Positions 7,760 through 29,939 are shown, counted from the first letter of the stretch. The stretch is 32,000 bases of DNA from Candidatus Saccharibacteria bacterium oral taxon 488 (GCA_010202845.1 CP047921.1:270001-302000), one strand, 5' to 3'. Notes: a model not told the origin generated them from the letters alone. Numbers and translations: made by a program.

Positions 7760-10354
7760 TTACTTCTTTGAGCGCCTGCTTTTTCTCGGGGATTTGGATG
7801 ATTTGGCCGAGGCGCGGCCGCGGCGAGCTGGTTTCGCGGGTGCGGCTTTTAGGAGTTCCAAGGCCTGCTCGTGAGTGATGGTTTTTGGGTCGGTGTCTTT
7901 GGGGATTTTGGCGTTTTTCGTGCCGTCGGTGATATATGGGCCGAAGCGGCCGTTGAGGACTTTGACGCCATCGCCAAAGTCAGCGATATTTTTCTCGGCC
8001 TCGGCTTGGAGTTTGGCGGTGTAGAGCTCGCGGGCTTTTTCTAGGGTGATGGTGTGCGGATCTTCAGGCTTGATAGAGACGAAAAGCTTGCCGACTTGGA
8101 TGTACGGGCCGAAGCGGCCGATGTTGGCTTTGATGTCTTGCCCGTCTTCGGTTTGACCAACGACGTGCGGCAATTTGAACATTTCTAGCGCCTGCTCCAG
8201 AGTGACGGTCTCAATTTTCGCGCCTTTTGGTAGCGGTGCAAAGCGCGGTTTGTCCTCGTCGTTAGTGGCGCCCAGCTGCAACATTGGGCCAAAACGGCCA
8301 AAGCGCGCCAGGATTGGCTTGCCAGATTTTGGATCGATGCCGACTTCACGGTTAGCGCCAACTTTACTGCGGTCGATGCCGCCTGACTGTTCGATTAATT
8401 TGTGAAATGGCGTGTAAAATCCGTTGAGCATGGCGCTTTTAGCCAGCTCGGCGGCGGCGATTTTATCAAATTCAGTTTCGACATTGGCGGTGAAATCATA
8501 GTCAACGATTTGCGTGAAATGGTCGGTCAAAAAGTCAGCGATCAGTTCCCCGCTCGGCGTTGGGATGAGTTTACCGCGAGTGGAGCCGGTTTTTTCTTGG
8601 ACGACGTCGCGGCTGACTTCTTCGCCGTTATAATTCAAGACGATGACGTCGCGCGGGCTCCCTTCGCTGTCGCCTTTTTCGACGTAGCCGCGGGTCTGCA
8701 CGGTGTCGATGATGGTGGCGTAGGTGCTTGGCCGGCCAATACCGAGATCTTCGAGTTTCTTAACCAGTGAACCTTCGGTATAGCGGGCTGGCGGTCGGGC
8801 GAAGATTTGGCGGGCGGTGATGTCGTGGGTTTTAAGTGTGTCGCCGGTGTGGAGTTTTGGTAAGAGTTCATCTTTGCCGCCGCCGTAGACGCGTAGGAAG
8901 CCGTCAAAGGTGATGACTTCGCCTTTGGCTTCGAAGTGTAAGTCTGCAGTAGCCGCCTCTCGGACACCATCAGCAAAGTCAGCATCACCAGCGCCACGCT
9001 CCCGCACTGGAGTACTCTTTTCGCTTGTATCTCCACTGGAGATACTACGCGAGCGTTCGGCTGAAACGTTCGCTTCTCGCGAACGTTTCACAGCCTCCAG
9101 CGCAGAAGGTGCCGCTGTTGCTGGCGCATCTGGCGCGAGCGGCGTCTCGGAAAAAATCTGGGATTGTCTCGGGTCCCGGATTGTTTTATGAGACGTCTGA
9201 GTGCCGTCGATAGCAATTACCACCGTGGTCTTCTCTAATTTTGCTGCCGACATTTGCGATGCTAGGGTGCGGCGGCGAATGAGGTCGTAGAGTTTCTGGT
9301 CGTACTCGTTGGAGGTGACGGTTTCGCGGGTAATGTCGGTCGGGCGGATGGCTTCGTGGGCTTCTTGGGCGGAGGCGGATTTGGTTTTGAATTTGCGCAC
9401 AGTCGAATAATCCGGGCCGTACAACCGCTTGATAAAGTCGGTGGCGCTAGCGATGGCCTGCCCGCTCAAATTGACCGAGTCGGTACGCATGTAGGTGATT
9501 TTACCGTCTTGGTACAGCCGCTGGGCTGAGGCCATGGTAGCTTTGGAGCTGAAACCAAGCTTGGCGTTGGCCTCCTGTTGCAGAGTTGACGTCGTAAACG
9601 GCGCGGCTGGGTTGCGGGTGCCAGGCGTCTTTGAGATGTCGCTGACGGTGAACGTGGCTGGCTTGAGGCTGTTCAAGAATTCGTGAGCAGCTGCTTCGGA
9701 ATCAAATTTTTGATTGAGCTCGGCTTTGAATTCTTGATTGTCGTGGATGAATATGGCGGTCACCTTGAACTGCGAGCTGCCTTCAAATTTCATGATTTCT
9801 CGTTCGCGTTCGACCAGTAATCGCACCGCTGGGCTCTGGACGCGGCCAGCCGACTTGCCTCCCGGCACTTTTTGCCAGACTACGGGGCTGAGCTCAAAAC
9901 CAACCAATCGGTCGAGAATTTGCCGTGCCTGCTGCGCTTGCACCAGGTTCATGTCGACGGTGCGCGGGTTTTTGATGGCATTGGTGATAGCATCTTTGGT
10001 AATCTCGTGAAAGACGATGCGTTTGGTCGTCTCAATCGGCAAATCCAATACTTTACAGAGGTGCCAGGCAATGGCCTCCCCTTCGCGGTCTTCATCGGTG
10101 GCCAGCCAGACATTGTCTTTGCCAACAGCCTTGACATTTTTCTTCAGCTCGCTGATGACTTTCTTTTTCTCTGGGTCAACTTCGTAGATAGCAAAAAAAT
10201 CATTCGCCACATCAATTGGCGGCGTGCCATCTTTGGTTTTTTTGACAATTGAGCGGATGTGTCCCACGCTTGACAGGACATGAAAATCCTTGCCTAAGTA
10301 TTTCTCAATGGTTTTAGCTTTGGCTGGTGACTCGACGATGACGAGATTTTTCAT
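7760..10354 (-). CDS. topA: DNA topoisomerase I (type IA) with a zinc-finger-less C-terminal repeat domain and an ~87-codon internal insertion
   Basis: Toprim N-terminus MKNLVIVESPAKAKTIEKYLGKDFHVLSSVGHIRS, and the active-site region ITYMRTDS. Three C-terminal GRFGP repeats (FGRFGPMLQLG, IGRFGPYIQVG, NGRFGPYITDG) and a Lys-rich tail. TATAAT lies 8 nt upstream of the ATG (leaderless-type). Confidence 0.95.
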   Translation of the reverse strand: MKNLVIVESPAKAKTIEKYLGKDFHVLSSVGHIRSIVKKTKDGTPPIDVANDFFAIYEVDPEKKKVISELKKNVKAVGKDNVWLATDEDREGEAIAWHLCKVLDLPIETTKRIVFHEITKDAITNAIKNPRTVDMNLVQAQQARQILDRLVGFELSPVVWQKVPGGKSAGRVQSPAVRLLVEREREIMKFEGSSQFKVTAIFIHDNQEFKAELNQKFDSEAAAHEFLNSLKPATFTVSDISKTPGTRNPAAPFTTSTLQQEANAKLGFSSKATMASAQRLYQDGKITYMRTDSVNLSGQAIASATDFIKRLYGPDYSTVRKFKTKSASAQEAHEAIRPTDITRETVTSNEYDQKLYDLIRRRTLASQMSAAKLEKTTVVIAIDGTQTSHKTIRDPRQSQIFSETPLAPDAPATAAPSALEAVKRSREANVSAERSRSISSGDTSEKSTPVRERGAGDADFADGVREAATADLHFEAKGEVITFDGFLRVYGGGKDELLPKLHTGDTLKTHDITARQIFARPPARYTEGSLVKKLEDLGIGRPSTYATIIDTVQTRGYVEKGDSEGSPRDVIVLNYNGEEVSRDVVQEKTGSTRGKLIPTPSGELIADFLTDHFTQIVDYDFTANVETEFDKIAAAELAKSAMLNGFYTPFHKLIEQSGGIDRSKVGANREVGIDPKSGKPILARFGRFGPMLQLGATNDEDKPRFAPLPKGAKIETVTLEQALEMFKLPHVVGQTEDGQDIKANIGRFGPYIQVGKLFVSIKPEDPHTITLEKARELYTAKLQAEAEKNIADFGDGVKVLNGRFGPYITDGTKNAKIPKDTDPKTITHEQALELLKAAPAKPARRGRASAKSSKSPRKSRRSKK
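9136..9190 (-). repeat. Copy C of a 55-nt imperfectly palindromic repeat, in frame inside topA
   Basis: The reverse complement cataaaacaatccgggacccgagacaatcccagattttttccgagacgccgctcg matches 22834-22888 at 48 of 55 positions (hand alignment). The internal inverted repeat cgtctc...gagacg spans 9143-9195. Confidence 0.85.
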
Positions 10355-12083: not shown

Positions 12084-12397
12084 CGATTGGTTAGCCGAAG
12101 TGCTAATCAAAAGCACCTTATACCCCCTATTCTAACTAATATGTTAGGTTGCGCGCAATGGCATTAAGTATTCTTACCCTCCACTTTTTGCGATTCAACG
12201 TTACGCGCATACTAACCCCTTTAACTGCCCTTTTTTGAAGGCGACCTCTGTTAAGGTGAGCACTGGATGGTGTTGATATTATAATCAGGCGCGGACTTTT
12301 GGAGTTTTAGTCACGACGCTTCACTGAGACGGGAGCTCGGGTGGGTTGAAGGGTAACAAAGCGCCAGGTGATGCCCACCCTTACCTGGCGCTTTTTT
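12084..12397 (+). ncRNA. Candidate noncoding RNA transcription unit (class unknown), bounded by a promoter and a terminator
   Basis: It runs from the consensus promoter at 12049-12077 to the intrinsic terminator at 12361-12397. No credible plus-strand ORF begins in the interval (the largest is an 8-codon ATG ORF). A second promoter-like copy TATAATCAGGcGCG sits at 12280, which predicts a shorter ~105-nt species. No match to tmRNA, RNase P, SRP or riboswitch signatures that I could recall. Confidence 0.35.
12361..12397 (+). terminator. Intrinsic terminator
   Basis: 9-bp stem GCGCCAGGT / ACCTGGCGC with a 13-nt loop, followed by TTTTTT. Confidence 0.75.
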
Positions 12398-12545: not shown

Positions 12546-13529
12546 ATGACGCAGATAATTGAGCACGATACCTTAGTCAAGTTAAGCCAAGAGCGCCCGT
12601 TGGTGTTTCGAGCCCAAGCGGCCGCCGTCTTGGCGCGCGTGCCGCGACGATTTCGACGAGATGCGCGGATGCTGAATCGTAGCAAGCGCACGATGCACGA
12701 TATGCTGACGGCGTGGCGGGACGAATGGTTGCCGAGGCTAGAGACGATCACCTCGGCGCATAATGCGACAACGTTGCAACAAGCCTTGCAGGAGGATTTG
12801 CTGGCCGAGACGTCGTCGCAGCAACGGCTGATCGCCATGATGATACCGGTGCGGCTTGAGGAGGAGCGACTGGCCTTTGCGGGGTCGCAGTTTACGTCAA
12901 AGCGAGAGAAAAAGCCGTATCAGCGAACGCTGGCGTTCGCCCAGCAGCCAATTGAGGTCTGTCGACAGCAGGTTGAAGATTTTATGAGGTACGAACTGTA
13001 CCGGGCGGTGCTCGGTGAGGTCGGTGTGACCGTGGTGGACAAGCAGGCGCGGCCTTTGGTGCGGTGCTGGCAGCGGCTACGGGCCGGTCGTCAGGTTAAG
13101 AAACTGCGACGTGAGGTAACGAGGCGCTTGGCGGCGATTGAGCGAGAAATGACGGCGATTGAGCAGGAGCGCGGCGGCTTGGCGGCCCGGCTGTTCGGGC
13201 TGAATATTGATTATGTGACGGTGTTGGCAGCGCGACAGGAGTACGAAAAGGCGCTGGGCCGGCTGAGTAAAAAAGCGGCCGAGAGCCCGGCCAAGCGGCT
13301 GGCACTATACGAGAAAAAGACCGAAGCGATTCGCGAGGAATACCTCGACACAGTACCGGGCGTGGCGAATTTGTCAGAAGCGCAGCGGGCGGTCAAGGAA
13401 ATTGATTCGGTGCTGCTCGCGATTTTTGACCTAGACGCGACCGCGCGCAACGAACTGATGAGCGCGTTTAAGCGCTACCGGACGCTGACGCGTGAGCGCG
13501 ACATGCTACGGGCAAAGCTTGAGGTGTAG
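12546..13529 (+). CDS. Hypothetical Arg-rich, predominantly helical/coiled-coil protein
   Basis: 327-aa ORF with consistent coding look. It is GC-richer than its neighbours (about 62 percent by hand count on one 60-nt line). No motif recognised. Confidence 0.65.
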   Translation: MTQIIEHDTLVKLSQERPLVFRAQAAAVLARVPRRFRRDARMLNRSKRTMHDMLTAWRDEWLPRLETITSAHNATTLQQALQEDLLAETSSQQRLIAMMIPVRLEEERLAFAGSQFTSKREKKPYQRTLAFAQQPIEVCRQQVEDFMRYELYRAVLGEVGVTVVDKQARPLVRCWQRLRAGRQVKKLRREVTRRLAAIEREMTAIEQERGGLAARLFGLNIDYVTVLAARQEYEKALGRLSKKAAESPAKRLALYEKKTEAIREEYLDTVPGVANLSEAQRAVKEIDSVLLAIFDLDATARNELMSAFKRYRTLTRERDMLRAKLEV

Positions 13530-14051: not shown

Positions 14052-14088
14052 TGTAGCACTTATTGCGACAAAATTGCAATAAGCTACA
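14052..14088. promoter_or_regulatory. 37-bp imperfect palindrome (candidate operator) overlapping both divergent promoters
   Basis: TGTAGCacTTATTGCGACAAAATTGCAATAAGCTACA. The outer arms TGTAGC/GCTACA and the inner ATTGCGACA...TTGCAAT are symmetric. It covers the TTGCAA -35 elements of both the fur promoter (minus strand) and the 14111 promoter (plus strand). Confidence 0.55.
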
Positions 14089-14902: not shown

Positions 14903-14921
14903 ATTGAGACATTGTCGCAAT
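14903..14921. repeat. Copy of the 19-bp palindrome ATTGCGACA-N-TGTCGCAAT
   Basis: ATTGaGACATTGTCGCAAT, in the 52-nt gap between convergent stops (14881 plus, 14934 minus). Confidence 0.7.
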
Positions 14922-17951: not shown

Positions 17952-17970
17952 ATTGCGACATTGTTGCAAT
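17952..17970. repeat. Copy of the 19-bp palindrome ATTGCGACA-N-TGTCGCAAT
   Basis: ATTGCGACATTGTtGCAAT, in the convergent gap between stops 17911 (+) and 18021 (-). The flanks cTATTGCGACA....TGCAATAAGC closely match the operator copy at 14060-14083. Confidence 0.7.
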
Positions 17971-20068: not shown

Positions 20069-20450
20069 AATGTTCTTCCTCCCCACCCGAGCGGATGCTC
20101 ATGTGAAAAACACTGGTCGACACTCGGATGGGTCGACTCGAGATGGGGTGTTTTGGTGCTTCTTATGATACACCACGACATCCCACCTCAAATCGAAACT
20201 TTCTCTGCTTGTCAAACTACACTTTCGGACAAGGATGTACTCAACTCGTCAACAAAAGCTGATATATATATATCACTAATAGAACAAAATGTCAATGGAT
20301 TTTGTCAAAAATGTGGTGTAATATTTTTTCTCACCCCTGTTATGATCATAGATAACTTTTTATAGAAAATAGTAGCCGGTGCTTTCTGATAACAGTAACT
20401 TGGCGCAGCATGATAAGAACGGGTCGGAATGTTGGTATTTCAAGAACATC

Positions 20451-20486
20451 AAAACGCCGACAGGTACATAAGCGCGTCGGCGTTTT
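20451..20486. terminator. Intrinsic terminator hairpin (usable on both strands) downstream of the 20535 stop
   Basis: 11-bp stem AAAACGCCGAC / GTCGGCGTTTT with a 14-nt loop. T-runs follow on both strands. Confidence 0.65.
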
Positions 20487-20534
20487 GTTAGGATTTTTAT
20501 AGCCTAGAAACACTTGATATCAAGCGTACAATTG

Positions 20535-21676: not shown

Positions 21677-23305
21677 TCACTTCTTGTCAAGAACAACCAA
21701 GTGCTCACTATGCGGCGTGCGCGGGAAAAAGTTGTAGCCGCGGTGATGGACGATGCGGTAGTGCTGCTGGAGCAAGGCGACATCGCGAGCTTGGGTGACG
21801 GGGTTGCAGCTGAGATAGAGGATGCGCGGCGGTAGCTGTTGCAACAATGTCGCAATAACGTCAGGATGTAAGCCAGCGCGCGGCGGATCAACGATGACGA
21901 TTTCCTTGCCTGTAATGTGGTCGAGGGCTTGTTCGCTGGGGGCGAGGACAGCGCGAGCGTCGGTGCGGTCAAGTTCGGTGATGTTGCGCTGCATTTCGCG
22001 GACAGCGTCGGTGTTGATTTCCACCAGCGTGACGTTGCCGCCGCCAATGGTCAGACCAATAGTGCCGACGCCAGCATAGAGGTCGAGGGCTGGCTCGCCC
22101 GTCTCGCAAACATCTTTTTCTTCAGGCCGGCGCGCCGCTAACTGATCTAGCTGGCGCTCTTGGCGCGCCTTTGCCGGAAAGGCAAAGCCTTCAGAAAAAG
22201 AGTTTGACGAGTCGTGCTGCTTGCTTTCTCTATGTTGCCCAGATTTTTTCTGAGATATTACTCGCTGTTGACTATCAATGTCGCCATGTGCCGCCAACTG
22301 AGCCCGGCGCTCTTGGCGCGCCTTATTGTACGGCATCCACTCCTTCATATCGCGCAGCGCCTGCTCGTAAACCGGGATGTTGACTTGGAAAAAGCCTTCG
22401 CAGGCGTAGCGGAATGGTATGCCAAGGATAGCGTCAGTCAAGGTGGTGTTACCGAAAAGCGCCAAGCGCTCGGTGATGCGGCTGGCTGGCGAGCGCGGGT
22501 CGGAATAGATAATTTCCCCGCCCTGAGCTGGTAGCTTGGCGGCTTCAGTAGCGGTAATTATTTCGGGCAAGCGATCTTTAACATACAACTGCCATACGCA
22601 ACTTCCCGATTGATCGCAGCGGACGAGCAAGGTCTTGAGCTGGCGAGCCGCGACGCGTTTATGGCGCAGCAAATTGCGGATCGCCCGCGCCAGGTTATTG
22701 ATTGCAGGGTGCGCCAAGCTCGTGCCATCGATGACAATCTTGCCTTTGCTGCCGCGGCGAAAAAATGCTAAATCAAGCGTATCGCCAGATGATTCTTCAC
22801 GGTCGCTATCCGCGTCTATATCTTGGTTATTATCAGAAAATAATTCGGGACCCGAGACAAGCCCAGATTTTTTCTGAGATACCGCTCGGGATACCACCGA
22901 TTCGCTGTACCAGCTAAATTCAACTTTGTTGCGATAACCATATGCGACATTGTCGCAATAAATGTCAATCGCCGCCGGTAATGTAACATTGTGCAGTGTA
23001 AAGGCGTCGTCGATCAGTTGCCTTTTGTATATCTGCTCTATCTCGAGCGGCATAATTTGCCAGGGGCTGGTCGACAGGTAACTATCTGGATCGCGCGGCT
23101 GGATGCGGTCGGGGCTTGGCAAAATTACCTCCTCGACAATCGCTTCGACGAAGTGCGATTTCTTTTTAGTAATGCGAACAGTGACCGTCTCGCTGGGCAG
23201 TCCGCCCCATACAAAACATTTGCGGCCGTCGGTCAGCGTCCCTAGTGCTTGCCCGCCGCCAACGACCTTCTCCAGTGTCAGCGTCTCAAAACTCTGTCGT
23301 TTCAT
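21677..23305 (-). CDS. RlmD/RumA/TrmA-family (uracil-5) RNA methyltransferase with an N-terminal TRAM domain and two internal insertions
   Basis: TRAM-like N-terminus (LTLEKVVGGGQALGTLTDGRKCFVWGGLPSETVTVRITKKK). Family motifs GYRNKVEFSW, GFFQVN, LDLYAGVGTIGL, IVDPPRAGL and YLSCNPVTQARD. The ATG at 23305 lies 8 nt downstream of TATAAT (23319-23314). Confidence 0.85.
   Translation of the reverse strand: MKRQSFETLTLEKVVGGGQALGTLTDGRKCFVWGGLPSETVTVRITKKKSHFVEAIVEEVILPSPDRIQPRDPDSYLSTSPWQIMPLEIEQIYKRQLIDDAFTLHNVTLPAAIDIYCDNVAYGYRNKVEFSWYSESVVSRAVSQKKSGLVSGPELFSDNNQDIDADSDREESSGDTLDLAFFRRGSKGKIVIDGTSLAHPAINNLARAIRNLLRHKRVAARQLKTLLVRCDQSGSCVWQLYVKDRLPEIITATEAAKLPAQGGEIIYSDPRSPASRITERLALFGNTTLTDAILGIPFRYACEGFFQVNIPVYEQALRDMKEWMPYNKARQERRAQLAAHGDIDSQQRVISQKKSGQHRESKQHDSSNSFSEGFAFPAKARQERQLDQLAARRPEEKDVCETGEPALDLYAGVGTIGLTIGGGNVTLVEINTDAVREMQRNITELDRTDARAVLAPSEQALDHITGKEIVIVDPPRAGLHPDVIATLLQQLPPRILYLSCNPVTQARDVALLQQHYRIVHHRGYNFFPRTPHSEHLVVLDKK
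21838..21856. repeat. Intragenic copy of the 19-bp palindrome
   Basis: gTTGCaACAATGTCGCAAT, inside the methyltransferase CDS (encodes DVIATLLQQ). Confidence 0.6.
22153..22324. repeat. 153-bp in-frame unit bounded by perfect 19-nt direct repeats inside the methyltransferase CDS
   Basis: GGCGCTCTTGGCGCGCCTT occurs at 22153-22171 and 22306-22324, spaced 153 nt (51 codons) apart. At the protein level this gives the duplicated KARQER. Confidence 0.8.
22191..22257 (+). repeat. Copy B (variant) of the palindromic repeat
   Basis: Terminal inverted repeat TCAGAAAAA (22191-22199) / TTTTTCTGA (22245-22253). The 21-mer gcccagattttttctgagata (22237-22257) is identical to 22861-22881. Confidence 0.75.
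22833..22888 (+). repeat. Copy A of the 55-nt palindromic repeat, in frame inside the methyltransferase CDS
   Basis: tcagaaaataattcgggacccgagacaagcccagattttttctgagataccgctcg. It has the inverted repeat TCAGAAAA / TTTTCTGA and an inner CGGGaCCCG palindrome. It matches the reverse complement of 9136-9190 at 48 of 55 positions. Confidence 0.85.
22941..22959. repeat. Intragenic copy of the 19-bp palindrome
   Basis: taTGCGACATTGTCGCAAT, with a perfect 15-bp palindromic core TGCGACATTGTCGCA. It encodes IYCDNVAY, immediately before the conserved GYRNK motif. Confidence 0.65.
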
Positions 23306-23324
23306 CAAGAGTTATTATAACAGA

Positions 23325-23798
23325 TTAGAAATTACACTCTGGCACGCCGCCAAACCAGCCGTTCTGCATATTGCGGCCAGTGCGGCAGGTGGTGCCATCT
23401 GAGAGCAGCACCTTTATGGCGTAGCGGGTCGGTACGACGCTGGAAGCGTGGGTCGTGTCAGTGGCTGCGAGATACCAATAATCGCGGCCTTCGTGGTCTT
23501 TCGGCAGCTGCTTGATGTAGCGTGGAATGAGAAGTGCGCCGAGCTCACCACCATTACAAATCTTCATATTAGCGGTGTTATAAATGGTGCAGGCGCTCGT
23601 CGGCCATGGATATTCGCCGTTGTCCGAACGATATTTCTCGATCGCCTCTTTGAGCATTGAAATATTTGACTTGGTTTCGTTGTCGCGAGCGGTGTTGTAG
23701 GCATTGCGCCAGACGAGGCCGCCCAAGGTAGCGAGGATCGCGATAACCACGATAATGATGATAACCTCAACGATAGTAAAGCCATACTGCTTATGCAT
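23325..23798 (-). CDS. Type IV pilin-like protein (prepilin with an N-terminal methylation motif)
   Basis: MHKQYG/FTIVEVIIIIVVIAILATL is a class III signal peptide (G-F-T-x-x-E). Start set at 23798, 6 nt downstream of TACAAT. The longer ORF-track version (to 23963) would run antisense through tRNA-Gln. Confidence 0.8.
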   Translation of the reverse strand: MHKQYGFTIVEVIIIIVVIAILATLGGLVWRNAYNTARDNETKSNISMLKEAIEKYRSDNGEYPWPTSACTIYNTANMKICNGGELGALLIPRYIKQLPKDHEGRDYWYLAATDTTHASSVVPTRYAIKVLLSDGTTCRTGRNMQNGWFGGVPECNF

Positions 23799-23877
23799 AT
23801 GACGATTGTAGCGCGTTTTGAGCCCGATCGCAAGGCTGGTAATTGCGTAATTGTTATGATACACTAATCCTTGGTAT

Positions 23878-23952
23878 TGGGCCGTCGCCAAGTGGTAAGG
23901 CACCAGGTTTTGGTCCTGGCATTCGGGGGTTCGAATCCCTCCGGCCCAGCCA
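23878..23952 (+). tRNA. tRNA-Gln (anticodon UUG), CCA encoded
   Basis: Hand-folded cloverleaf. Acceptor stem UGGGCCG/CGGCCCA (U1-A72, as in bacterial tRNA-Gln). D arm GCCAAGUGGUAAGGC. Anticodon stem CCAGG/CCUGG with loop UUUUGGU. T arm GGGGGUUCGAAUCCCUC. Discriminator G followed by CCA. Confidence 0.9.
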
Positions 23953-24040
23953 AGCAAAGACACGTAATTATTCTAAATCTCCTCCGGCTTCCGGTTCAAT
24001 CGACGCCGTGCATTATTACGCCGGCTACCACGGGTCGTTC

Positions 24041-27207: not shown

Positions 27208-27285
27208 CTATGCCCGTAGCTTCTTATCCTTCAGCTTCAACACCACATCGGCCTGCTTAGCCAGCTGTTTGCTGTGGGTGACGAC
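27208..27285 (-). pseudogene. Orphan duplicate of the last 25 codons plus stop of the ABC-transporter ATPase gene
   Basis: It encodes VVTHSKQLAKQADVVLKLKDKKLRA*, versus VVTHSKQLAKQADVVLKLKDKKLKA* at 29310-29387. The upstream 62 nt (27224-27285 vs 29326-29387) differ at 3 positions, all synonymous. There is no upstream coding continuation. Confidence 0.75.
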
Positions 27286-27302: not shown

Positions 27303-29204
27303 TCAATGCGTTGAATCTCCATCTTTATCTGCGATTAAATCTATGATTTTACGAATCTCCCTTGCTCTGTCGTCATCGCTGTTTAGAAAATGATCCATCT
27401 CATTTTCACAAAAATCAATTACATGATCAATTCTTTTTTCCTTTCCAGTATACTGTTCGATGGCTCCTTTCTTTAGATAAAACTCATAAGATGGATATTT
27501 CGATTCTATTTTCTCATCTAGGTCAGGGTGCTCGTTTCTATATGCAATTATCTGCTCGTCTGTTTTTACTGGCGGTAGGCTCTTCTTTTGACTTCTGTAA
27601 AAGCCTCTATAGAAATCCGTTTTTGTAGTATCTAAATCCTTAATAAAATAGACTTTTAGTCCAAAAGATTCAAAAAATGATTTAAATGAGAACATGCTCC
27701 TCTCGCCATTCACACCGTATACAGTAATACATTGACTGGCTTCTTGATGCAGTATCTTTATAGCAGCCCTAAAGAAATACTCATCATCTTGACCTTCAAC
27801 CAGCAATACTCTATCTAGAAATAGCACTCGAGCTGCCCAAGTATTGTTTAGGATTTCTATCAACTTTTTTTGATCTTCCCTAATATCGGGAGTACGCACC
27901 ACGGAATTACGCTCTTCATTTAGCGAGAATCGTTTTATGTATCTTATCGTGTTATCGTTTATGAAACCTTCGGAATGCGTTACAAGAATGCACTGAATTT
28001 CTTGTTCTTTTGCTAAATCTTCAAGAATTTTTAGATATTTAGATTGGAACTGATAGTGTAAATGAATCTCTGGCTCGTCAATAATAATAAGACCACCTTT
28101 TACGTCATCTCGACCATACGCTTCAAAGATTAAGTGTATAATCGATTTTTGTCCAGCGCTAAGACTGTTTATGTCACCCAGCTCTCGGTCATTTTTTATA
28201 TCACGGAATTTAAACTCGTACGACCATCTTCGTATACTTACTGGTTTTACAGATAGCTGTAAATTTAATATTCTAAGCTTTTCGTTTATCTTTTTGATTA
28301 TTGGAGAATTATTGATTGTAGCTGTGGCATCATTAATATTTTTACCCTCTTTTACTCGCTTAAAGTGATCTTCACCGAGCTTTAATTTTATGAAATCAAA
28401 GATAGCAGGCATGCCTGAGGAGTGCTCGTTAATACTATGGGGGATTAGCCTATTTTTTACATTCTGAAATACATCACCCGAAGGACCATCGCCATTATAT
28501 AAGTGTATCTGAGAGTTATCATTGCCGTAGTCACGGAAAGCTGATAGCATAGAAAAAGTATTTTCAAGAGGTGCTATGTGGTCGGTGTTATCTTCATTGT
28601 ATACTGTTATAGCCTCATTAATTGCGTGGTAATATTCTAAATAGAATTTTATATAATCCGGCACTGGATCACGATAGTGGCTCTTATACGTATTATCTTC
28701 GTCGTATTTGGCTTGTTTAAATGTAATATCTATTTCTATATCCATATCACTATCTAGCGCACAAAACTCAGGCATTGGTATAATTGAGTAATTTTCAAGA
28801 GTCTTTTTTATGTGGCTATAGTTATCTACAATATGATCTATATTAGCCCTATCAATATTATCAAGCTTAATTGATACTCTTACTCTCTGCTGTGCTTCTT
28901 CTGAACTCCAATTAGGTTGGAGCCTAAGACCTAATGTTCTATTGGAGTAATTATCATCAATTTGAAGCATGTTCTTTCTATCTGTATAATATGAGCGATG
29001 ACTGCTGTAGCTATTTGTTATGCGCTTAAATAAAGCTCTCGTAAAGACAAGATTCATAGCCTCTAAAACCGTTGACTTGCCAGATCCGTTTTCTCCAATA
29101 ATGATATTAAGATCTGGGTCAAATTCAATCTTAAAGGCGTTGTTTATGTCCTCCTCATATTTAAAGCTAAGGATATTTGATAATTGCAAATAATTAACTC
29201 TCAT
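27303..29204 (-). CDS. Fused ABC/SMC-like ATPase + Toprim nuclease-like protein (OLD family / fused PARIS AriA-AriB-like)
   Basis: N-terminal LQLSNILSFKY...IIIGENGSGKSTVLEAM (Walker A). LSAGQKS signature, LIIIDEPEIHLH (Walker B/D-loop) and ILVTHS (H-loop). The C-terminal VLLVEGQDDEYFF and FIKDLD fit the Toprim Glu and DxD motifs. TATAAT lies 10 nt upstream of the ATG. Confidence 0.75.
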   Translation of the reverse strand: MRVNYLQLSNILSFKYEEDINNAFKIEFDPDLNIIIGENGSGKSTVLEAMNLVFTRALFKRITNSYSSHRSYYTDRKNMLQIDDNYSNRTLGLRLQPNWSSEEAQQRVRVSIKLDNIDRANIDHIVDNYSHIKKTLENYSIIPMPEFCALDSDMDIEIDITFKQAKYDEDNTYKSHYRDPVPDYIKFYLEYYHAINEAITVYNEDNTDHIAPLENTFSMLSAFRDYGNDNSQIHLYNGDGPSGDVFQNVKNRLIPHSINEHSSGMPAIFDFIKLKLGEDHFKRVKEGKNINDATATINNSPIIKKINEKLRILNLQLSVKPVSIRRWSYEFKFRDIKNDRELGDINSLSAGQKSIIHLIFEAYGRDDVKGGLIIIDEPEIHLHYQFQSKYLKILEDLAKEQEIQCILVTHSEGFINDNTIRYIKRFSLNEERNSVVRTPDIREDQKKLIEILNNTWAARVLFLDRVLLVEGQDDEYFFRAAIKILHQEASQCITVYGVNGERSMFSFKSFFESFGLKVYFIKDLDTTKTDFYRGFYRSQKKSLPPVKTDEQIIAYRNEHPDLDEKIESKYPSYEFYLKKGAIEQYTGKEKRIDHVIDFCENEMDHFLNSDDDRAREIRKIIDLIADKDGDSTH

Positions 29205-29252: not shown

Positions 29253-29280
29253 ATAAAAATATAGCTCTTTCGAGCTATAT
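29253..29280 (-). terminator. Intrinsic terminator carried by the cassette, directly after the current ABC ATPase stop
   Basis: The minus strand reads ATATAGCTC-GAAA-GAGCTATAT (perfect 9-bp stem, GAAA tetraloop) followed by TTTTT. Confidence 0.7.
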
Positions 29281-29309
29281 TTAAAACGTGTATTTTTTGG
29301 AGACTATTT

Positions 29310-29939
29310 TTACGCTTTCAGTTTTTTATCCTTCAGCTTCAACACCACATCCGCCTGCTTAGCCAGCTGCTTGCTGTGAGTGACGACGATGACGCATTTG
29401 TCATTTTCATGGGCGGCCTGGCGCAGGATATCGATGATGTCAGCAGCGGTAGTTTCGTCCAGGTTGCCAGTCGGCTCGTCTGCCAAGACGATCGGCGCGG
29501 AGGACACCAGCGCTCGCCCGATCGCCACACGCTGTTGCTGACCGCCAGACAGTTTCATAACATTGCGGTGAATGTGATCGTCGTCCAGACCCATGGTGTG
29601 CAATGTTTCGTTGGTGGCTTTAGGATTAACTAATTTCAAGTTTTCTAGCGGCGTCAAGTAGTCAATCAGGTTATAATTCTGAAACACCAGCGAGATATTG
29701 TGTTTACGATGGTGCGAATAACCCTGCTCGGCGATATCCTCGTCGTTGAACAAAATCTGCCCGCCAGTTGGCGTGTCCAATCCCGCTAGTAGCCCGAGCA
29801 GTGTCGACTTGCCGGCGCCAGAACTACCAACGATGGCGTAGAACTTGCCCTTTTCAAATTGATAATTGATGCCGTTGAGCACATTGCTGGTGCCATCAGC
29901 GTATGAGTAAATGATATCGCGTAACGTAAGTATTGACAT
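29310..29939 (-). CDS. ABC transporter ATP-binding protein (MacB/LolD-type)
   Basis: GSSGAGKSTLL (Walker A), LSGGQQQRVAIGRAL (signature), VLADEPTGNLD (Walker B) and VVTHS. TAGGAG lies 4 nt upstream of the ATG. Confidence 0.9.
   Translation of the reverse strand: MSILTLRDIIYSYADGTSNVLNGINYQFEKGKFYAIVGSSGAGKSTLLGLLAGLDTPTGGQILFNDEDIAEQGYSHHRKHNISLVFQNYNLIDYLTPLENLKLVNPKATNETLHTMGLDDDHIHRNVMKLSGGQQQRVAIGRALVSSAPIVLADEPTGNLDETTAADIIDILRQAAHENDKCVIVVTHSKQLAKQADVVLKLKDKKLKA

Follow-up and report, generated by a model that had tools for sequence, protein, structure and literature searches.

A low-copy family of short palindromic modules lies in frame within housekeeping genes of human oral Saccharibacteria. 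The family is modular (modules E and M, together with further, less well defined ones) and invertible, each module having a length divisible by three and, on either strand, one frame without stops. On balance, it is likely that these sequences resemble the Rickettsia palindromic elements (RPEs) in behaviour, being passengers carried in loops of the host proteins. The analysis started from a window of 32,000 nt of Candidatus Saccharibacteria oral taxon 488, i.e., the whole stretch of DNA analysed, in which a preliminary description had pointed to one imperfectly palindromic repeat within two unrelated genes and had likened it to the RPEs. One open frame per strand, both orientations, and in-frame copies in unrelated genes bear out that likeness.

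Palindromic modules in the topA and RlmD genes

Both host genes of the window are encoded on the minus strand. The ORF at 7760-10354 has the Pfam signatures of TopA (Toprim, Topoisom_bac, Toprim_C_rpt), while the ORF at 21677-23308 was assigned by Pfam to an RlmD/TrmA-like methyltransferase. A 55-nt repeat had been aligned by hand between these genes at 48 of 55 positions, and computation reproduced it: the reverse complement of 9136-9191 in topA matches 22833-22888 in the RlmD-like gene over 56 nt with 88% identity, and this pair (I1) is the longest inverted repeat of the window. The Pfam-assigned ORFs agree with the statement that the element is read in opposite senses, and the peptides quoted at the time are present, SHKTIRDPRQSQIFSETPLAP in TopA and SRAVSQKKSGLVSGPELFSD in the methyltransferase. 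The core CCCAGATTTTTTCYGAGA was found at three sites with three mismatches or fewer, 9145-9162 on the minus strand and 22238-22255 and 22862-22879 on the plus strand, where 0.03 sites are expected from shuffled sequences; none of 100 shuffles contained three sites.

The repeat exists, but the unit is larger than first described. A hairpin module of approximately 75-80 nt, designated E, has the 55-mer as its core, and the profile matches cover 9133-9205 and 22819-22891. The arms reach about 30 nt on each side, giving a unit of 75-78 nt with the terminal inverted repeats and small size of a MITE. In topA, module E (9133..9205, minus strand; GTQTSHKTIRDPRQSQIFSETPLAP; nhmmer E value 2.8e-18) is in the 'same' sense and forms an imperfect hairpin from the arms TCTCATAAAACAATCCGGG and CCCAGATTTTTTCCGAGA with the loop ACCCGAGACAAT, to which outer complementary arms are added. 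The predicted folding energies of the two strands of this copy are -32.5 and -18.1 kcal/mol, the former being that of the plus strand (z=-3.8). At RlmD site A the module (22819..22891, plus strand; E value 1.3e-20) is antisense to the gene and is read as SRAVSQKKSGLVSGPELFSD. At RlmD site B only the right arm and the core are present (22236..22265, plus strand; model positions 50-79, E value 9e-6), fused to a different palindromic segment, Q (22172-22237). The 21-mer GCCCAGATTTTTTCTGAGATA, on which the preliminary description had based a third, partial copy, is indeed identical at RlmD sites A and B; this third copy is, however, a hybrid allele and not a simple truncation. Depending on orientation, E encodes either SHKTIRDP..QIFSE(TPLAP) or SQKKSG..GPGLFSD(D).

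After E in the topA gene comes module M (9010..9115, minus strand; ~105 nt; AAPSALEAVKRSREANVSAERSRSISSGDTSEKST), in which a hairpin scan located perfect hairpins with stems of 12 bp (9062-9090) and 9 bp (9027-9045). The peptides of M are ALEAVKRSR..SISSGD in one orientation and SPPE.RERSAETS..RERFT in the other. The insert is closed by a segment termed E' (8954..9010, minus strand; PVRERGAGDADFADGVREA), which may, tentatively, represent a degenerate copy of E with reversed sense. In other alleles (L003) this position is taken by an intact, inverted E, and the profile matches found for the segment are weak (E value 0.017 in L069 and 0.11 in L001).

Together E, M, and E' make up an insert of 89 codons (8942..9208, minus strand; TopA residues 383-471) that breaks the Topoisom_bac match of TopA in two and is hypervariable even when TopA proteins with 93% identity or more are compared. 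In alignment with the solved TopA structure (PDB: 6pcm), residues 390-471 of TopA (82 residues) stand against only 2-3 residues, and the corresponding position falls between aligned blocks, at residues 448-451. Similarly, residues ~135-176 and 318-405 of the RlmD-like protein lie between blocks that align with solved RumA-type enzymes. The split Pfam match and these gaps agree with the earlier placing of the segments outside the conserved architecture of either family. The inserts of the hosts are located between Pfam domains, and the insertion points would, judging from these alignments, be surface loops or linkers in which the inserted peptide probably forms an unstructured stretch. An AlphaFold2 model of TopA was set aside (mean pLDDT 37.6 from a shallow alignment of 13 sequences).

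The extent of the RlmD inserts was determined relative to empty alleles. At site A the insert is 111 nt, or 37 codons (22790..22900, minus strand; SVVSRAVSQKKSGLVSGPELFSDNNQDIDADSDREES), where the empty allele of L033 has 9 nt; its limits come from a DNA alignment with L033 in which the compared lengths are 165 and 63 nt. At site B it is 153 nt, or 51 codons (22172..22324, minus strand), relative to the empty allele of L085. The peptides predicted across the insert junctions of the window alleles include TIRDPR, QSQIFSETPLAPDAPATAAPSALEAVK, and AVSQK. The string SSGDT, common to the TopA and RlmD inserts, has no support at the DNA level and was considered a coincidence.

Genomes and host genes carrying the modules

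Modules E or M were identified in about 54 oral Saccharibacteria genomes (species-level) and in more than 100 metagenome contigs, so that the repeat does have further copies beyond the window. The core of E was found in 77 Saccharibacteria stretches, and every one of these matches lies inside the ORF of TopA, RlmD (sites A and B), Dus, or an ABC-F ATPase; outside the Saccharibacteria there were nine scattered matches in other phyla, against approximately nine calculated for chance alone. The core of M is present in at least 120 metagenome stretches, and the hosts among the matches listed are ABC-F, the linker of RNase HII-YraN (UPF0102), Der/EngA, TopA, LeuRS, and Dus. All E copies are coding, as are all M sites but one among the matches listed. 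The exception occupies the spacer right after the stop codon of RelA/SpoT, facing ppa (L100 3562-3891), and at least 13 contigs have an M copy in this spacer. The coding copies are all in frame, free of stops, and within uninterrupted host ORFs, and the hosts amount to at least eight unrelated housekeeping genes, with about nine sites in all and not dozens.

Searches for a wider distribution gave no further sites. When 692 kb of related loci, and then the metagenome loci, were searched with an nhmmer profile, no E copies were detected outside the known sites, and a search for further hosts with a 51-residue consensus peptide returned no candidate with enough common words. Among phage and virus sequences in IMG/VR there were two chance matches to E and none to M. 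Our search of the literature revealed no earlier account of a family of this type in Saccharibacteria, in keeping with what had been supposed for this type of genome.

A search of representative proteins with the topA insert gave only three true matches, all of them assembly chimeras joined through the repeat; chimeric representative proteins also pointed to Der as a host. These chimeras, together with the mismatched flanks of 7 of the 120 metagenome contigs among the matches listed, raise the possibility that the family is an artefact of assembly or sequencing, or a chance similarity of low-complexity sequence. However, two complete genomes (CP128407.1 and NZ_CP076459.1) also carry these in-frame copies, as do more than 50 independent MAGs and over 100 metagenome contigs, and chance would supply 0.03 matches in the window, which leaves this explanation with next to no probability.

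Empty, inverted, and recombinant alleles

The sites are occupied in some strains and empty in others. In the close strains L001 and L005, topA lacks the 81-nt segment that holds E, and L033 and L085 have empty alleles at RlmD sites A and B, respectively. These empty sites, like the split Pfam match and the gaps against solved homologues, speak for insertion rather than an ancient shared sequence, and the modules are presumed to be mobile. No clean target-site duplication was found, the filled and empty alleles differing by replacement and not by clean insertion; the sole candidate is the 4-nt TACC that flanks E in Dus of L012, which could be due to chance. The insert at RlmD site B is bounded by a perfect direct repeat of 19 nt (D14; GGCGCTCTTGGCGCGCCTT at 22153-22171 and 22306-22324). 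It was also considered as a target-site duplication, a reading that was rejected, since the repeat is explained by recombination between L068-type and L007-type alleles in the core of E.

Site B documents this recombination directly. The window allele consists of an L068-type left part and an L007-type right part joined in the E core, the allele of L036 is its reciprocal, and crossover within that core connects the four allele classes at the site, with E present in either sense across alleles. Loop variants of E are common to different host genes, and some pairs of copies from different sites are 95-99% identical. Overall, the identity of copies is 0.91 within the same site and 0.81-0.83 between sites. 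Because the copies cluster mainly by site, recent transposition is not evident, and the pattern points to inheritance that would be mostly vertical and old with occasional exchange. Moreover, a BLASTN module map indicates that E and M occur independently of each other: M is inverted in TopA of L003 and in ABC-F of L055, L008, and L045, and is absent in Dus of L012 and L084.

Opposite orientations were seen among alleles of a single site in each of TopA, Dus, ABC-F (module M), RNase HII-YraN, and RlmD (site B). In L003 the topA insert corresponds to the reverse complement of the window allele (reverse alignment score 142 over ~190 nt), whereas in the forward alignment only the flank matches. 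Because the length is a multiple of three and a stop-free frame exists on each strand, a module fits in either orientation and would be translated. In topA the antisense reading, reported earlier as open, is open across the whole insert and meets stop codons in the host flanks. In some cases two frames per strand are open, of which only one is used, and the alternatives are closed in most copies.

Two orientations at each of five sites, both strands kept open, and an orientation that is uncorrelated with the similarity of the flanks are what would be expected if a recombinase flipped modules bounded by inverted repeats within a population, thereby recoding loops as a form of phase variation; programmed intragenic invertons of this kind have been described (10.1101/2023.03.11.532203). 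The absence of tracking between orientation and flank similarity was seen in ABC-F and TopA, for which few near-identical strains were sampled. However, oppositely oriented copies at one site share only 73-85% identity and are set apart by indels and shifts of frame, and are thus not the product of a fresh flip, and no pair of contigs with opposite orientations has nearly identical flanks, the best pair reaching ~93-94% flank identity. A single-step, recent flip of the topA insert was rejected, given that the antisense frame of M differs from that of a pure flip and indels are present. Furthermore, the window contains no invertase, and inversion alone explains neither the presence and absence of modules nor their shuffling. 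Programmed inversion is, based on these results, unlikely.

More generally, no transposase, integrase, or invertase was found in the ORFs of the window, in the fetched flanks, or among the neighbours of topA. In the scheme that we favour, in which the modules are RPE-like passengers, they would be selfish or near-neutral DNA whose original and old dispersal to about nine sites proceeded by transposition or illegitimate recombination and whose inheritance since then has been mostly vertical. Either orientation would be tolerated owing to the multiple-of-three length and the open frame on each strand, the module presumably being translated within the host protein. Remodelling would be ongoing, through deletion, through inversion or replacement by a copy in the opposite orientation, and through homologous recombination or gene conversion via the conserved core, whether the partners are alleles of one site or copies at different sites. 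The inversions might arise by hairpin-mediated template switching. A more far-reaching proposal is that the modules are the substrate of an active and as yet undescribed hairpin-dependent rearrangement, in which cassettes readable on both strands are inserted, flipped, and swapped in essential CPR genes by an unrecognised single-strand, hairpin-specific enzyme or by replication template switching, with a continual recoding of loops in enzymes of DNA, RNA, and the ribosome as the effect. We regard this proposal as doubtful; were it true, the modules would represent a novel type of mobile or diversifying element and not a fossil repeat.

Constraint on the modules and their relation to known repeats

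The hairpin is conserved and the peptide is not. In E, compensatory pairs are found at stem positions 8-85 (GC31/AU19), 9-84 (GC16/UA14/CG13), 10-83 (CG36/UA9/AU7), and 18-74 (CG30/UA24); in M, they are found at 66-84 (AU28/GC25) and 67-83 (AU35/UA15). The core of E is strongly conserved, in a sample that was itself selected on that core. The diversity of the topA insert is 0.168/0.128/0.193 by codon position, as compared with 0.036/0.012/0.231 in the topA flanks, and the almost equal values over the three positions of the insert indicate near-neutral evolution of the peptide. The two orientations at one site also give unrelated peptides.

Stems whose pairing is preserved by compensatory changes in four or more arm variants, and the very strong conservation of the E core (with the selection of the sample noted above), would suit RNA or DNA structures recruited by genes of nucleic-acid and ribosome metabolism as sites for an RNase or RNA-binding protein, as a pause or terminator, or as protein-binding DNA. 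The M copy between the convergent RelA/SpoT and ppa genes is where a terminator would be expected, and the listed hosts (TopA, RlmD, Dus, ABC-F, Der, LeuRS, and RNase HII) all handle DNA, RNA, or the ribosome. On the other hand, the modules have no match in Rfam, either at gathering thresholds or with E values up to 1, and no RNA family was matched in L100, L114, or L136. Empty alleles are viable in close strains, and either orientation is tolerated even though a G-U pair on one strand corresponds to a C-A mismatch on its complement. In a genome of 850 kb a large part of the long genes serve information processing, so that the bias among hosts may be trivial. The covariation itself could reflect mechanical self-correction of the palindrome rather than selection. 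A functional hairpin is therefore rather improbable, although most hosts work on DNA, RNA, or ribosomes, which leaves room for function.

Selection might instead have copied a peptide module with a role in interaction, localisation, or regulation between proteins, the palindrome being incidental. The same frames, SHKTIRDP..QIFSETPLAP and SQKKSG..GPGLFSDD, do recur across hosts, and a single frame is used where two are sometimes open, but the closure of the alternative frames in most copies is enough to account for frame fidelity. Unrelated peptides encoded at the same site by the two orientations, diversity that is near equal over the codon positions, and gain and loss of modules between close strains make a functional peptide very unlikely. 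The RPE-like passenger thus remains our preferred reading.

The empty, filled, flipped, and recombinant alleles form a natural series for insertion, inversion, and decay, and they offer a direct view of how essential enzymes acquire new loops. Oral TM7 bacteria are culturable and heavily sampled, which makes these steps testable. They are also naturally transformable. At the practical level, the repeats create chimeric contigs in metagenome assemblies and chimeric 'proteins' in protein databases and inflate the apparent divergence of proteins; they could also be used as hypervariable strain markers for oral Saccharibacteria.

The modules resemble several known repeats in part. Intragenic invertons likewise consist of a segment bounded by inverted repeats that lies within a gene, occurs in both orientations, and recodes the protein (10.1101/2023.03.11.532203). 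They flip in a clonal population by means of an invertase (10.1101/2023.03.11.532203), whereas the two orientations of a module appear, in the assemblies compared, as fixed and diverged alleles that belong to different strains, and the segment is a repeat dispersed in many genes. With the bacterial MITEs that form in-frame fusions, such as intragenic ERIC and BOX (PMC10969869), they share small size, a non-autonomous nature, inverted-repeat ends, and hairpins, and MITEs are occasionally translated within host ORFs (PMC10969869). Nevertheless, neither a target-site duplication nor a high copy number was found for the modules, no parent insertion sequence was found in the window or the fetched flanks, and nearly all module copies are coding, in contrast to the mostly intergenic classical MITEs.

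The PARCELs have in common with the modules a dyad-symmetric coding sequence, a peptide from either strand, intragenomic shuffling, and occurrence in minimal-genome bacteria. They consist of an amphipathic 25-residue motif repeated in tandem, are spread by horizontal transfer, and lie in ORFs that lack an assigned function and often encode membrane or surface proteins. The modules are single and non-tandem, they reside in conserved cytoplasmic enzymes, and their peptide is not an amphipathic repeat; tandem arrays of the 25-residue motif were not found. REP/BIME elements are short, imperfect, dispersed palindromes in which the hairpin is maintained. They are extragenic, are present in hundreds of copies, and have a GTAG-type head and an associated RAYT gene. 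The modules share with them the maintained hairpin, the dispersal and, in the one M copy between convergent genes, a terminator-like position, but not these hallmarks.

The closest parallel is with the RPEs, elements of ~100-150 nt of which R. conorii has 44 insertions (PMC10969869, summarising Ogata et al. 2000). Both are hairpin-forming palindromes that lie in frame within unrelated housekeeping genes and are found in non-coding DNA as well; both have two open strands and add a conserved, apparently dispensable peptide where the fold of the host protein tolerates it; and both belong to host-dependent bacteria with reduced genomes. The modules are smaller (~75-105 nt) and occupy about nine sites instead of 44. 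The likeness is one of behaviour, and homology in sequence would not be expected between such distant phyla, the carriers being Patescibacteria/CPR in one case and Alphaproteobacteria in the other. Unlike the RPEs, E, M, and the other modules combine freely, take either orientation at a site, and recombine through their core; to our knowledge, none of these three properties has been reported for RPEs. Elements of the RPE type have so far been treated as largely a peculiarity of Rickettsia, and an independent, unrelated family in the ultrasmall, epibiotic Saccharibacteria suggests that in-frame palindromic repeats may recur in reduced, host-dependent genomes with little intergenic space.

A hairpin repeat in topA and an RlmD-type gene

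The longest inverted repeat returned by the repeat finder for the window pairs positions 9136–9191 with 22833–22888 (56 nt, 88% identity), which bears out the gapless 55-nt inverted match reported in the preliminary description. The first copy lies in the gene of a type IA topoisomerase (TopA; 7760–10354, minus strand) and the second in that of an RlmD/TrmA-like methyltransferase (21677–23308, minus strand), both identified with Pfam, and the peptides quoted for the two copies were found in the translated ORFs. With up to three mismatches, the core CCCAGATTTTTTCYGAGA occurs three times in the window against 0.03 expected. The 55-nt unit holds as a core, but not as the full extent of the repeat, since a profile built from many copies gives longer matches at 9133–9205 and 22819–22891. 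This hairpin repeat (module E) has two arms of 18–19 nt each, TCTCAGAAAAyAATCyGGG and CCCAGATTTTTTCTGAGA, and a loop of 12–15 nt that exists in discrete variants; the full unit reaches about 75–78 nt once outer complementary arms are counted.

The topA insert comprises 267 nt (residues 383–471). It includes E, followed by a second hairpin-rich module, M (9010–9115), with perfect hairpins of 12 bp and 9 bp, and by a terminal segment, possibly a degenerate E of opposite sense. The antisense reading noted earlier in topA extends over the whole insert, stop codons being present in the host flanks only, and both E and M keep one frame per strand consistently open.

Host genes and allelic variation

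A search for further copies, as the preliminary description had proposed, placed the repeat in many Saccharibacteria genomes and several host genes. A 20-nt pattern of E, run against a single genome of each species, yielded 86 stretches, 77 of them in oral Saccharibacteria (about 54 genomes, among them two complete ones, CP128407.1 and NZ_CP076459.1); the remaining nine are dispersed over other phyla, with about nine chance matches expected by calculation. All Saccharibacteria matches are inside ORFs of four genes, encoding TopA, RlmD (two sites, A and B), a Dus-family enzyme and an ABC-F-type ATPase. Compared with representative proteins, the topA insert had three matches, all chimeric ORFs joined through the repeat, which exposed Der/EngA as a further host.

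In metagenomes, the M core matched at least 120 stretches. Among the matches listed, M is present on metagenome contigs in ABC-F (at least 16 in the opposite and at least 6 in the same sense), the linker between RNase HII and UPF0102 (at least 16 opposite, at least 13 same), Der (at least about 15 contigs, all same), TopA (at least 7 same, at least 4 opposite), LeuRS (at least 5) and Dus (at least 3), as well as in the spacer directly after the RelA/SpoT stop codon, facing ppa (at least 13). At least seven further contigs had mismatched flanks and count as chimeras. Two host genes are joined through a shared cassette in the database proteins P0121–P0123 and in the metagenome loci L131, L144, L149, L152, L166, L167 and L204, the pairs including ABC-F with TopA, Der with Dus, Der with ABC-F, and TopA with LeuRS, among others. 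The repeat has probably produced most of these chimeras through misassembly, in which case one genome can have copies at separate sites that are near-identical across more than 100 nt. In L099 (979–2082) and about 30 related loci, a single ORF encodes both RNase HII and a YraN-like UPF0102 domain, with M in either orientation as the linker, and the repeat may have fused these two neighbouring genes.

The modules are insertions, not ancestral sequence. As suggested earlier from the family architecture, both the TopA and the RlmD inserts are extra relative to solved structures: 82 TopA residues stand where mycobacterial TopA has 2–3, and both RlmD inserts separate blocks that align with RumA-type enzymes. 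The proposed orthologue comparison also revealed empty alleles for TopA and RlmD. The insert spot is hypervariable among TopA proteins at least 93% identical elsewhere. In DNA comparisons of three topA alleles, L001 and L005 retain M and are missing an 81-nt segment holding E, while about 200 nt of the L003 insert is reverse-complemented relative to the window allele. RlmD site A (E at 22819–22891) is empty in L033, a 102-nt difference, and site B (partial E at 22236–22265) is empty in L085. L006, L023, L029, L043 and L063 have an inverted E at site B. A programmed inversion of the modules could be considered for such alleles; however, those of opposite orientation are diverged and not exact flips, and we regard this explanation as improbable.

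The modules are independent of each other. BLASTN mapping against the window topA insert identified E then M in the same sense (ABC-F, L080), E then inverted M (ABC-F, L055, L008 and L045), inverted E then M (Dus, L089), E alone (Dus, L012; RlmD) and E with the terminal segment and without M (Dus, L084). The same loop variants of E recur in different host genes. The mean identity of E is 0.91 at the same site across genomes, compared with 0.83 (within genome) and 0.81 (between genomes) at different sites, with outliers up to 0.96–0.99, which indicates mostly vertical inheritance with occasional conversion between sites. The allele classes of RlmD site B are related by crossover within the E core: the window allele combines an L068-type left part with an L007-type right part, and L036 is the reciprocal product. 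The direct repeat "KARQER" at this site was rejected as a target-site duplication, because it is created by the L068-type/L007-type junction.

Further, less well defined modules were also observed. Segment Q (GQHRESKQHDSSNSFSEGFAFPA; 22172–22237) is joined to the E core of RlmD site B. Segment N (SLSDKSIALRTALPDAFDxEET.G.RAAA) adjoins M in Der and, in antisense, also in the RelA/SpoT spacer; ABC-F has only its ..LEETAG.RTAAA.. tail (example loci among these hosts: L095, L041 and L114).

Other features of the window

The palindromic box TTGCGACAnnGTYGCAA has 10 strand matches at six sites (12763–12779, 14063–14079, 14904–14920, 17953–17969, 21839–21855 and 22942–22958) against 0.18 expected. 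Four are in spacers of a metal-homeostasis cluster (FUR-family regulator, nicotianamine-synthase-like, DUF1980 plus ArsP_1 permease, TerC/DUF475 and cobW genes), and the box is probably a Fur/Zur-type operator. The remaining two are inside the RlmD ORF, one about 40 nt from site A. A 68-nt direct repeat (27218–27285 and 29320–29387; 93% identity) duplicates the 3' end of an ABC-transporter ATPase gene (29310–29939). Between its copies is an OLD-family nuclease gene (27303–29204; AAA_15 and OLD-like TOPRIM domains) of low GC (34–40%), an arrangement suggestive of a defence gene whose insertion duplicated the end of its target. A RAGATH-10 RNA match was found at 20074–20152 (minus strand, 55.9 bits). 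A tRNA gene (23878–23949, plus strand) overlaps the 5' part of a mechanically called ORF (23325–23963; pilin-like, N_methyl and T2SSG domains), so that the true start of the pilin-like gene would be further downstream. Perfect hairpins with 11–15 bp stems at 2757–2794, 12358–12394, 20450–20487 and 29257–29282, apparently intergenic, look terminator-like and unrelated to E or M.

Hairpin conservation and comparison with known elements

Stem positions covary in both modules: in E, pairs 8–85 (GC31/AU19), 9–84 (GC16/UA14/CG13), 10–83 (CG36/UA9/AU7) and 18–74 (CG30/UA24), and in M, 66–84 (AU28/GC25) and 67–83 (AU35/UA15), although these counts include related sequences from a sample selected on the core pattern and overstate independent events. 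Complementarity is kept in at least four different arm variants. The encoded peptide, unlike the stems, is nearly unconstrained: diversity at the three codon positions is 0.168/0.128/0.193 in the topA insert versus 0.036/0.012/0.231 in its flanks. That the hairpins have a function as RNA or DNA is a less likely alternative, and the stem covariation, the intergenic copy of M and the host bias toward enzymes acting on nucleic acids all count in its favour; no Rfam family matched the modules.

The most likely interpretation is a family of palindromic passenger modules similar to Rickettsia palindromic elements (RPEs), as first proposed and here refined. An old dispersal would have carried the modules into loops and linkers, where a length divisible by three and open frames on both strands would allow them to be tolerated; deletion, recombination through the core and orientation changes would have remodelled them later. 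No transposase or invertase was found in the window or neighbouring loci, no clean target-site duplication in the allele comparison, and no module copies on viral contigs. A full-text literature search found no published description of such repeats in Saccharibacteria. The behaviour of the modules matches that of RPEs as summarised in PMC10969869, and there is partial resemblance to PARCELs (PMC2996958), in-frame MITEs and intragenic invertons. The Saccharibacteria modules differ from all four in their phylum, in their low copy number, in their free combination and in the fact that a single site can have them in either orientation.
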